A stretch of 64,000 bases of DNA, taken from assembly GCA_014238855.1 (NCBI GenBank), contig JABAAH010000012.1, forward strand, positions 440 to 64,439, read 5' to 3'. Origin of the DNA: Planctomycetota bacterium. Lineage in GTDB: Bacteria; Planctomycetota; Planctomycetia; Pirellulales; UBA1268. Both the position numbers and the translations under genes were made by a program. Shown here one piece after another: positions 49,986-51,975 of this stretch (position 1 is its first letter; each line of letters opens with the position of its first letter). The notes beneath the pieces are model-generated. The model saw only the letters and a list, made by a program, of their open reading frames with translations, had not been told where the DNA came from and made no database searches.

Positions 49986-51011
49986 TTAGACCGCCGCTCC
50001 AGCAGCAGCTTTCACTGTTTTGATAATTGCTGCAGCGACTTTATACGGATCTGCATTCGAAGCAGGTCGGCGATCTTCAAGACGGCCTTTCCAGCCATCA
50101 TCGATAGTGCCAACTGGAATACGAATCGATGCGCCACGGTCAGAAACGCCGTAACTAAACTGGTCAATGCTTTGTGTCTCATGTTGACCAGTGAGGCGTT
50201 GATCGTTGTCTGCTCCGTACACCGAAATATGCCTTTCAATAACACCGGAAAAGCCTTCACAAATGGTTGTGAAGACCTCTTTATCTCCACATGTACGCAT
50301 CAATTCATTCGAGAAGTTTGCGTGCATGCCAGAACCATTCCAGTCAGTTTTGCCAAGTGGTTTGGGATGCCAATCAATTGCATACCCATATTTTTCACCG
50401 ATCCGCTCAAGTAGATATCGGGCAACCCATATTTCGTCACCAGCACGTTTTGCACCCTTGGCAAACACTTGAAACTCCCATTGGCCAGCAGCCACTTCAG
50501 CATTGATTCCCTCAACGTTAATTCCAGCTTCGAGACAGGCGTCTAGATGTTCATCAACACAGTCTCGGCCGTGTGCGTTGGACGCACCGACAGAGCAGTA
50601 ATACGGTCCTTGAGGCGCTGGGTAACCTCCGAGTGGAAATCCGGGAGGATTATTGTTGGAAGTACACCATAGAAAGTACTCTTGTTCAAAACCAAACCAA
50701 AAATCTTCATCGTCATCCGCAATGGTAGCCCGACCGTTGGAATCATGAGGAGAACCATCTGCATTCAAAACCTCTGTCATAACGAGGTAGCCGTTTTTTC
50801 GACCAGGATCTGGAAAAATGGCGACTGGTTTAAGAAGGCAATCAGAATCACCACCAGTTGCTTGTTCAGTACTACTACCATCAAAAGACCACATTGGGCA
50901 CTCTTCAAGAGTGCCACCAAAATCTGACTCAATTCGAGTCTTCGATCGAAGGCTTTGGGTTGGCTTATAGCCATCAAGCCAGATGTATTCCAGTTTCGAT
51001 TTCGTGCTCAT
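49986..51011 (-). CDS. glnII: Glutamine synthetase type II (GSII)
   Basis: 341 aa; KLEYIWLDG, W.FDGSSTEQA.G..SD, WFGFEQEY, PQGPYYC.VG, G.NAEV..GQWEFQ, HPKP...DWNGSG.H.NFS, N..RLTG.HET, RGASIRIP, EDRRPASN.DPY. Confidence 0.95.
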   Translation of the reverse strand: MSTKSKLEYIWLDGYKPTQSLRSKTRIESDFGGTLEECPMWSFDGSSTEQATGGDSDCLLKPVAIFPDPGRKNGYLVMTEVLNADGSPHDSNGRATIADDDEDFWFGFEQEYFLWCTSNNNPPGFPLGGYPAPQGPYYCSVGASNAHGRDCVDEHLDACLEAGINVEGINAEVAAGQWEFQVFAKGAKRAGDEIWVARYLLERIGEKYGYAIDWHPKPLGKTDWNGSGMHANFSNELMRTCGDKEVFTTICEGFSGVIERHISVYGADNDQRLTGQHETQSIDQFSYGVSDRGASIRIPVGTIDDGWKGRLEDRRPASNADPYKVAAAIIKTVKAAAGAAV

Positions 51012-51063
51012 AACTGAAGTTCGTCCTTAGTCTTGAGAGAGGATTAGAAAACATTGAAGCTAG

Positions 51064-51191
51064 TCGACTGCAGGACGACATAACATCGATCTGCATCTCC
51101 GGCAGAGCCGAGGAGGAGCCGAGGTATTCCAGTTGGATACAGCCGCTTGTTCGGTGCCTGGTAGAGCCGAAAGCAATCGCACCGTACACGG
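51064..51191 (-). ncRNA. Candidate structured 5' leader / cis-regulatory RNA upstream of glnII
   Basis: Three adjacent hairpins (51191-51143, 51142-51091, 51089-51064), GC-richer than the flanks, three UCGGCUC copies in loops, and a 7-nt anti-RBS. Confidence 0.45.
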
Positions 51192-51198
51192 AGCAAAC

Positions 51199-51207
51199 GT
51201 TATACCA
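51199..51207 (-). promoter_or_regulatory. Putative extended -10 promoter (TGgTATAAC) for glnII
   Basis: Minus strand reads TGGTATAAC; the implied start site (~51192) coincides with the base of the first hairpin. Confidence 0.45.
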
Positions 51208-51351
51208 TCTGAAAACTACTGATAAACATCTTAAAAAAAGGGATTCCTTCTGCAACACGTCTATGTCGAATGCCCGAAAATTTAGCATTATCTGTAGCCG
51301 GTGCTAGAAAATCAGCTTCGATTTCTAGCAATATACTGGGCTGGGGCTATG

Positions 51352-51753
51352 TCAGTAATCGAAGCGTTCTTGAATGTACTGGCCATAGTCGCCACTCGTA
51401 ATCGGGATGCCGGGTTTTGTATGGCGGTTATACAAGTAGATATAAGCAGGTACATAAAGGCCATTAGGCAACAGAGCGTTTATCCTTGAACGAGAAAAGA
51501 GGGGTGAGAGGCCACCGCATTCTTCGTAGTCATCAAGAGGAGTTAATTGTTCAGTATCCGACAGACGAAGTAAGTCACCATGAACAATGCCATTCCCATT
51601 TGTGACTCCAGGAAAATCACCAAAATCGTAAAGTTTTCCCTGAACGGTAGCTGATCCGACTACTTTCATTTCAACAAGAAGTTGTATCGCTTCACTGGAT
51701 GCAAGGTGTGGTCGAAGTGTCCCGTATACGAAAAGGTGTTGAGGTATCATCAT
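51352..51753 (-). CDS. Gamma-glutamylcyclotransferase (GGCT/AIG2-like) family protein
   Basis: LFVYGTLR, G.LYD.G.FPG, V.G.L, LD.YE, AYIY.Y, I.SGDY. Confidence 0.88.
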   Translation of the reverse strand: MMIPQHLFVYGTLRPHLASSEAIQLLVEMKVVGSATVQGKLYDFGDFPGVTNGNGIVHGDLLRLSDTEQLTPLDDYEECGGLSPLFSRSRINALLPNGLYVPAYIYLYNRHTKPGIPITSGDYGQYIQERFDY

Positions 51754-51975
51754 ATTGTGCCGAACAAAAAGATCTCCAAGAATAAATGTATTTGAAAAGC
51801 CAGATAGCTATTCCAAAAATAAACAGTGTGTCTGGTCGAATTTTCTCAATGAATGACACAATGTACAGATACAGGTTGTGGGAATGAAATGATTAGTGGC
51901 ACCATGAAGGACTATTTTACAAACTCCATCTATTTGGTTTCAAATTCGAAAGTTATTGTAAGAAAGGTAAGGAGA

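Follow-up and report, generated by a model that had tools for sequence, protein, structure and literature searches.

Ammonium enters cell material through glutamine synthetase, and the type II enzymes (GSII) are not known to have the adenylylation switch of the enteric type I enzyme (GSI). How the output of GSII can be trimmed quickly without adenylylation is an open question outside rhizobia and actinomycetes. In rhizobia, the GSII gene glnII is stated, in passages of two papers, to be RpoN-dependent and NtrC-activated (PMC3616915; PMC10746234), and GstI, a small protein annotated as a glutamine synthetase translation inhibitor, is encoded upstream of it according to a passage of PMC3596328 that cites Napolitani 2004. 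Glutamine riboswitches, namely the glnA RNA motif and the Downstream-peptide motif, appear in a portion of another text as cis-acting elements of glutamine synthetase regulation that control translation (PMC6212724). Furthermore, part of the work of Levy et al. (bioRxiv 10.1101/086108) deals with insulators in sigma-54 promoters, CT-rich motifs complementary to the Shine-Dalgarno sequence (anti-SD), which silence translation by pairing with the ribosome-binding site. Here, we analyse glnII in a 64-kb stretch of DNA from a Planctomycetota bacterium (hereafter, the window), with the 196 nucleotides (nt) at 51012-51207, on the minus strand, as the leader segment examined. We lean, without great confidence, towards the view that glnII is served by a nitrogen-type sigma-54 promoter followed by a clade-restricted, structured, cis-acting leader that would toggle the masking of the Shine-Dalgarno sequence (SD).

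A scan of genome contigs with the GSII protein of the window confirmed at least 594 loci, the best 80 of which were taken for comparison. Eleven of the resulting 81 sequences share a leader of about 150-180 nt in front of glnII, namely the window and ten loci (L001-L009 and L034) that were identified alike by blastn, by nhmmer and by a covariance model (R1). Both this distribution and the covariation statistics given below rest on a small sample of related sequences. When nhmmer and R1 were run over the window plus the 80 loci (518 kb), no copies beyond the 11 glnII leaders were obtained, and there was no second leader copy in the window or elsewhere in the 80 loci. The element is found solely before glnII in these 518 kb and, therefore, there is no evidence for a wider regulon or a small RNA family. 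At the gathering score, Rfam 15 returned nothing in the whole window or in 18 related loci, so that, by the family's own model, the element is not a glutamine riboswitch; a cmscan of positions 50500-51900 at E <= 10 gave two irrelevant eukaryotic matches alone. In the open literature on glnII control, glutamine riboswitches and Planctomycetes (abstract level; subscription journals outside the scope), no description of the leader was found. These comparisons bear out the outline of the original prediction, made from the window sequence alone, that glnII has a structured, conserved 5' leader without a match in Rfam; the leader is real, apparently undescribed and narrow in distribution.

The promoter region was compared in 12 close sequences (the window, the ten leader-bearing loci and locus L012). 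All 12 carry YGGYAY-N5-TTGC at the aligned position, which implies leaders of 148-181 nt, and the pattern also occurs at most 300 nt upstream of glnII in 36 of the 80 loci, across phyla. Its representative in the window, TGGTATAACGTTTGC, has the GG at -24, the GC at -12 and the fixed spacing of a sigma-54 promoter, and is the single match to the -24/-12 pattern in the whole 64 kb. The stretch TGGTATAAC (51207-51199), originally read as an extended -10, is really the -24 half of this promoter and is of the TGGCACG type in the relatives. In the standard sigma-54 geometry transcription starts about 12 nt past the -12 element, and the start predicted for the window was placed in this way (Table 1). 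A site such as an enhancer-binding protein would use at a sigma-54 promoter, TGC-N11-GCA, was found about 100-150 nt upstream in 11 of the 12 sequences, against a background of 0.09 per region; in the window, this NtrC-type site (51287-51271) lies about 100 nt upstream of the predicted start. An imperfect copy, TGC-N11-GCT, sits roughly where the relatives have their TGC-N11-GCA. It is overlapped by an inverted repeat, TGCTAGAAA-N11-TTTCTAGCA (51301-51330, minus strand), with its centre about 134 nt upstream of the -12 element, and this repeat may represent a second activator-binding site. No rpoN or activator gene is present within the 64-kb window. The promoter and the NtrC-type site of the window agree with the RpoN/NtrC control stated for rhizobial glnII in the passages mentioned (PMC3616915; PMC10746234). 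As a separate observation, four of the 12 sequences (the window, at about 51240-51225 on the minus strand, L009, L007 and L012) carry an A/T-rich motif, TTTTTTAAGATG, downstream of the activator site and ahead of the -24 element, which may be a DNA-bending (IHF-like) site.

In alignment A2, which spans the region from the predicted start to the glnII start codon, two blocks are conserved: block A, AGACACCGAC.AGGCGGCUGC (window 51158-51138), and block B, UGCAGAUCGAUGUCGCGUCGUCCU (window 51095-51072). Mean pairwise identity is 0.75 for block A and 0.76 for block B, with 38% of the columns invariant, while the four-fold degenerate sites of glnII (n = 120) show an identity of 0.46 and only 0.8% of invariant columns. 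Since block identity is far above this synonymous background, the blocks are under purifying selection. In the RNAalifold consensus, block A is the partner of block B, and GUCCU that of AGGAC in the SD. The rod formed by the two blocks comprises 17 pairs (P0, which is GAC/GUC, P1 and P2), and 92% of its cells are paired versus 26.6-41.5% when the partner is slid. This pairing was reached by none of 500 shuffles and the covariation score of the rod by one of 500; for a candidate riboswitch this is a small set, of 11 related representatives, all of them upstream of glnII. The helix extends past P2 into the tip, where the sequences are unrelated: 6.18 of 8 pairs form within sequences compared to 5.07 across sequences, and in-register pairing of the tip was as high in just 24 of 10000 permutations. 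The spacing between block A and block B varies from 25 to 47 nt. The rod appears in 7-8 of the 11 single-sequence folds (manual reading), and the consensus rod is <=4.4 kcal/mol from the minimum free energy in six of the 11 sequences. Upstream of it, 8-12 nt from the predicted start, a 5' terminal hairpin is paired in 83% of cells, with four of its five pairs changed on both sides, a result as high in 0 of 500 shuffles. A long-range closing helix, CUGAAGC/GCUUCAG, was rejected as a conserved part: 79% of its cells are paired, which does not exceed shuffles, and the window lacks it. In four of the 11 sequences it forms the minimum-energy fold, and it is kept as a bare possibility.

The 3' foot of the rod carries the anti-SD. 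Its GUCC is invariant, all five GUCCU/AGGAC pairs are intact in eight of the 11 sequences, and 85.7% of the cells of this core are paired. The SD itself is AGGAC in nine of the 11 leader-bearing sequences versus GGAG in nine of ten other glnII loci compared. Judged from the alignment, the SD has thus changed, at the level of the clade, together with the G of the GUCCU anti-SD. In nine of the 11 sequences the SD is less accessible with the native than with a shuffled leader (mean 0.22 versus 0.38). A pyrimidine tract between rod and SD is the main predicted partner of the SD in three relatives. A read-through insulator, in which the 5' arm of H1, the first hairpin of the original prediction, would free the anti-SD in longer transcripts, was also considered and rejected: 5' extensions of 10-150 nt, made in silico in the 11 sequences, did not change SD masking consistently, and this arm is also window-specific.

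We propose that glnII would be transcribed from the sigma-54 promoter at 51207-51193, driven by the NtrC-type site at 51287-51271, into an mRNA whose leader, about 170 nt long, starts near 51181. This leader would be made up of a short 5' hairpin, a long rod with a nearly invariant lower half and a variable tip, the GUCCU anti-SD at the foot of the rod, a pyrimidine-rich spacer and the unusual AGGAC SD. The GUC of the anti-SD could pair alternatively with the GAC at the base of the rod (P0) or with the SD, giving two possible states: the SD would be free while the rod is closed, and masked when the rod is open. Stabilising or opening the invariant lower rod would thus set the masking of the ribosome-binding site. 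That the lower rod hardly varies, even at its unpaired bases, suggests that a ligand or a protein recognises it by its sequence. The candidate effector would be some small ligand, or else an RNA-binding protein reading the invariant internal loop. We infer the start site, the toggle, its effector and the direction of regulation, and the outcome would be translational control layered onto nitrogen-limited transcription. In a more specific version, which seems to us improbable, a new orphan riboswitch would use the invariant lower rod as its aptamer and sense glutamine, glutamate, 2-oxoglutarate or ammonium, and the choice made by GUC would gate the translation of a GSII free of adenylylation control.

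Several results weigh against a leader that toggles SD masking. The covariation is concentrated in upper P2 and the tip and comes from just 11 sequences of related genomes, and the 500 shuffles against which the rod was judged ignore phylogeny. The GUCCU:AGGAC helix showed no informative covariation among the 11 sequences (78-500 of 500 shuffles reach the observed values). In the predicted ensembles, the anti-SD is the main partner of the SD in just two of the 11 sequences (L009, 0.88; L007, 0.97), and in most of the others the SD pairs mainly with the pyrimidine tract or the linker. In the window transcript taken from the predicted start, the SD is unpaired with the anti-SD (ensemble probability of being unpaired, 0.55) and is more accessible with the native than with the shuffled leader (0.42 versus 0.32). 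Of the anti-RBS claimed originally, the complementarity stands, and its core GUCCU/AGGAC is conserved. The window copy is one of the more degenerate and fits worst among the 11: its P1 reads CCGAAC and UUAUGU versus CCGAC and UCGCGU in the consensus, and its consensus rod lies 12 kcal/mol above the minimum free energy. The folding energy of the 196-nt stretch (-51.7 kcal/mol) does not differ from that of dinucleotide shuffles (mean -52.24; z = +0.13), 108 of 200 of which were at least as stable. Finally, the sequence conservation of the two strands could also reflect recognition at the DNA level.

Another reading is a passive leader, in which rod and 5' hairpin would only stabilise or process the sigma-54 transcript, without sensing; they might protect it from 5'-end-dependent decay or serve as an RNase III site, and would set a fixed, moderate rate of translation. 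The covarying hairpin so close to the predicted 5' end (8-12 nt), the modest and inconsistent masking of the SD and the lack of a ligand-like multi-stem junction are all in line with such a role. A structural hairpin, however, should drift by compensation as the tip does (identity 0.27), whereas the lower rod is 75% identical, and its loop and bulge bases are conserved, with 38% of the columns invariant, which argues for sequence-specific recognition. We regard a passive leader as unlikely, if quite conceivable. Recognition at the DNA level would make the blocks operators for a transcription factor acting downstream of the promoter, as a roadblock or repressor, and the little variation in both blocks and the palindromes ATCGAT and GTCGAC in and after block B would suit this. 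Yet the blocks are mutually complementary, with compensatory changes where they meet the variable tip, and a spacing that ranges from 25 to 47 nt can be accommodated in a hairpin but would put DNA sites out of phase; operators are a highly unlikely explanation. Block B also contains an AUG (AUCGAUG), at the same column in eight of the 11 sequences, that opens a reading frame of eight codons in the window, and translation of a leader peptide from this upstream open reading frame (ORF) could be coupled to that of glnII. We rejected it as scarcely credible: the AUG is missing in three of the 11 sequences (L001, L003 and L006) and has no SD in front of it, the ORF differs in length and frame between sequences, and changes fall at codon positions 1 and 2 (UCG/UUA; CGU/UGU/AGU; manual reading).

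There remains the arrangement proposed originally, with an extended -10, three independent hairpins (H1-H3), a functional triplet of UCGGCUC and an anti-RBS in the loop of H3. Every one of its elements is present where it had been placed when the minus strand is read: the arms of H1 (CCGUGUACGGUGC / GCACCGAACAAGCGG), those of H2 (CUGUAUC / GAUGCAG, with the inner CUGG/CCGG) and H3 (UCGAU / GUCGA, intact in five of the 11 sequences), and UCGGCUC at 51170-51164, 51122-51116 and 51111-51105. Moreover, an RNA starting at 51207 has a minimum-energy fold with H1 and the anti-SD:SD helix. The comparison with relatives speaks against it. The supposed -10 aligns with -24 elements, which cannot be -10. 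The 5' arm of H1 (51191-51179; CGGUG) is absent in ten of ten relatives and the predicted start, near 51181, falls within it; H1 therefore does not belong to the conserved element, and transcription probably covers it only in part. Folded alone, no hairpin is better than its shuffles (H1, z = -0.94, 34 of 200 as good; H2, z = -0.83, 39 of 200; H3, z = +0.08, 99 of 200), and the minimum-energy fold of H2 differs from the one proposed. The consensus folds into a single long rod instead of three back-to-back hairpins, and there the 5' arm of H3 pairs with sequence 5' of H2. H2 survives in part, since its base CUGUAUC/GAUGCAG is the upper P2 of the conserved rod and shows compensatory changes, but it is not a separate hairpin. 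H3 is 77.8% paired overall with zero covariation, equal to shuffles, and it competes with the lower rod, so that it could be at most an alternative conformer. The heptamer does occur three times in the leader of the window, but in none of the leaders of the ten relatives. Two of the copies form an 11-nt tandem duplication, CCUCGGCUCCU CCUCGGCUCUG (51105-51127, minus strand), within the hypervariable tip, which contributes to the non-consensus minimum-energy fold of the window; TCGGCTC is found 12 times in the window versus 5.39 expected, a number reached by 0 of 100 shuffles. We consider this model largely refuted by the comparative data and give it very little credence: the leader had been rightly detected in outline and misread in detail. 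Two of the findings named beforehand as refuting the original prediction, a folding energy no better than that of shuffles and a lack of conservation of UCGGCUC, do hold for the window. A reading of a single sequence erred on promoter class, H1 and the repeated motif, and only the relatives showed the real parts.

Table 1. Positions of the features of the glnII region in the window (SD, Shine-Dalgarno sequence; aa, amino acids).
Feature	Positions	Strand	Remarks
Imperfect second enhancer-like site, TGC-N11-GCT	51314..51330	-	One mismatch to TGC-N11-GCA; putative function
NtrC-type activator site TGCTAAATTTTCGGGCA, TGC-N11-GCA, T-rich centre	51271..51287	-	Pattern conserved; activator identity presumed
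Sigma-54 (RpoN) -24/-12 promoter TGGTATAACGTTTGC	51193..51207	-	TGGTAT-N5-TTGC; YGGYAY-N5-TTGC conserved
Predicted transcription start	51181 (about +/-2 nt)	-	12 nt downstream of the -12 C; sigma-54 geometry
5' terminal hairpin position (CUGAA/UUCAG in most relatives)	51158..51171	-	Degenerate in the window, 3/5 pairs possible
Block A GGCACCGAACAAGCGGCUGUA, 5' strand of the rod (P0/P1, internal loop, P2)	51138..51158	-	Identity 0.75, 38% invariant columns
Hypervariable rod tip, with two UCGGCUC copies and the inner part of H2	51096..51137	-	Identity 0.27
Block B UGCAGAUCGAUGUUAUGUCGUC, 3' strand of the rod	51074..51095	-	15/17 consensus pairs possible in the window
Anti-SD UCGUCCU, rod 3' foot	51072..51078	-	Complementary to AGGACGA; GUC also pairs in P0 (GAC/GGC)
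H3 of the original prediction	51064..51089	-	May form in place of the lower rod, not alongside it
Pyrimidine-rich tract AUCCUCUCUCAAGA	51031..51044	-	Second possible SD partner or ribosome standby site
Shine-Dalgarno region AGGACGA	51021..51027	-	AGGAC in 9/11 leader-bearing sequences
glnII, glutamine synthetase type II, 341 aa	49986..51011	-	Pfam Gln-synt_N PF03951 and Gln-synt_C PF00120
Gamma-glutamyl cyclotransferase-like (GGACT) gene, upstream of glnII	51352..51753	-	Syntenic with the leader

The glnII product belongs to GSII, with both Gln-synt domains (N and C), a length of about 340 amino acids and its top similarity to GlnII. Its best NCBIfam model is NF041605 (GlnII), at 386 bits and thus below the equivalog cut-off of 500, and the nearest solved structures (3fky, 4bax and others; E about 1e-96 to 1e-82) are deposited simply as glutamine synthetase. 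All ten leader-bearing loci have the GGACT gene upstream on the same strand, and none of the other 70 does. Its products show only 40-51% identity, versus 87-91% for GSII. No candidate for gstI was detected by gene order and family matches, without direct comparison to a GstI sequence: the sole divergent small ORF, at 51301-51489 (plus strand), overlaps the GGACT gene and has no Pfam or NCBIfam match. An ORF of 104 amino acids runs across the leader (50974-51288); it gave nothing in NCBIfam and, in Pfam, just PF03300, whose 13.3 bits (E = 0.062) fall short of the cut-off of 27. As there is no significant family match and the length of the tip varies by non-multiples of 3, a long ORF through the leader was rejected. 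The remaining genes of the window, such as those for PSCyt1/PSCyt2/PSD1 and DUF1501 proteins, are typical of Planctomycetota.

Across the best 80 loci, GSII is 76-91% identical, and the titles of these entries name Planctomycetota, Gammaproteobacteria, Acidobacteriota, Bacteroidota, Myxococcota and Alphaproteobacteria. Such identity across phyla suggests lateral transfer or extreme conservation of the protein. Several of the closest metagenome-assembled genomes bear the title 'Candidatus Kuenenia sp.' and may have been mislabelled. Gammaproteobacterial glnII genes (L019, L053, L072, L041, L011, L036 and L044) have their own sigma-54 promoter and long leaders, of about 200-285 nt upstream of glnII (e.g., L019:1999-2226). 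In these leaders, conservation is confined to the 5' end (CACAAGGCAAGCC) and to a palindrome directly adjoining the SD, AGUCGAUAUCGAUUAGGAG; they had no match in Rfam, and RNAalifold on their MAFFT alignment gave 0 consensus pairs.

A conserved leader placed between a nitrogen-limitation promoter and glnII would provide Planctomycetota with a second, post-transcriptional layer of control over GSII. It would also be a new candidate member of the small group of RNA elements linked to nitrogen status, and blocks A and B, GUCCU and P0 are concrete targets for mutation.

Glutamine riboswitches are compact three-stem pseudoknotted aptamers, and those of cyanobacteria control factors that inactivate glutamine synthetase and are not known to control the enzyme itself. 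The leader described here differs from them in being a single long rod with a conserved internal loop and in having no Rfam match. Rod-like hairpin riboswitches with a conserved internal loop are represented by the NMT1/xanthine and folE/THF-II motifs. The long hairpin, the invariant internal loop, the variable tip and a putative control of the ribosome-binding site by the lower stem are shared with these motifs, a resemblance in general architecture only, as we know of no similarity in sequence or model. The insulators presented in the cited part of Levy et al. are alike in that a short CU-rich motif lies upstream of the SD in a sigma-54 promoter setting; they are situated <=25 bp from the SD and act on read-through transcripts (bioRxiv 10.1101/086108). 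The anti-SD of the window, in contrast, precedes the SD by about 45 nt and follows the predicted start, and would consequently be part of every transcript. GstI, as far as it is covered by the passage cited, is a precedent for post-transcriptional control of GSII at the glnII mRNA (PMC3596328). A gene of this type would be small and divergent from glnII, whereas the upstream neighbour in the window is the GGACT gene on the same strand. The glnII promoters of Rhizobium leguminosarum and Sinorhizobium meliloti are close in layout, since, as in the window, a GSII gene is preceded by a -24/-12 promoter and an NtrC-type site; here, in Planctomycetota, a structured leader of 150-180 nt, itself conserved, comes after the promoter.

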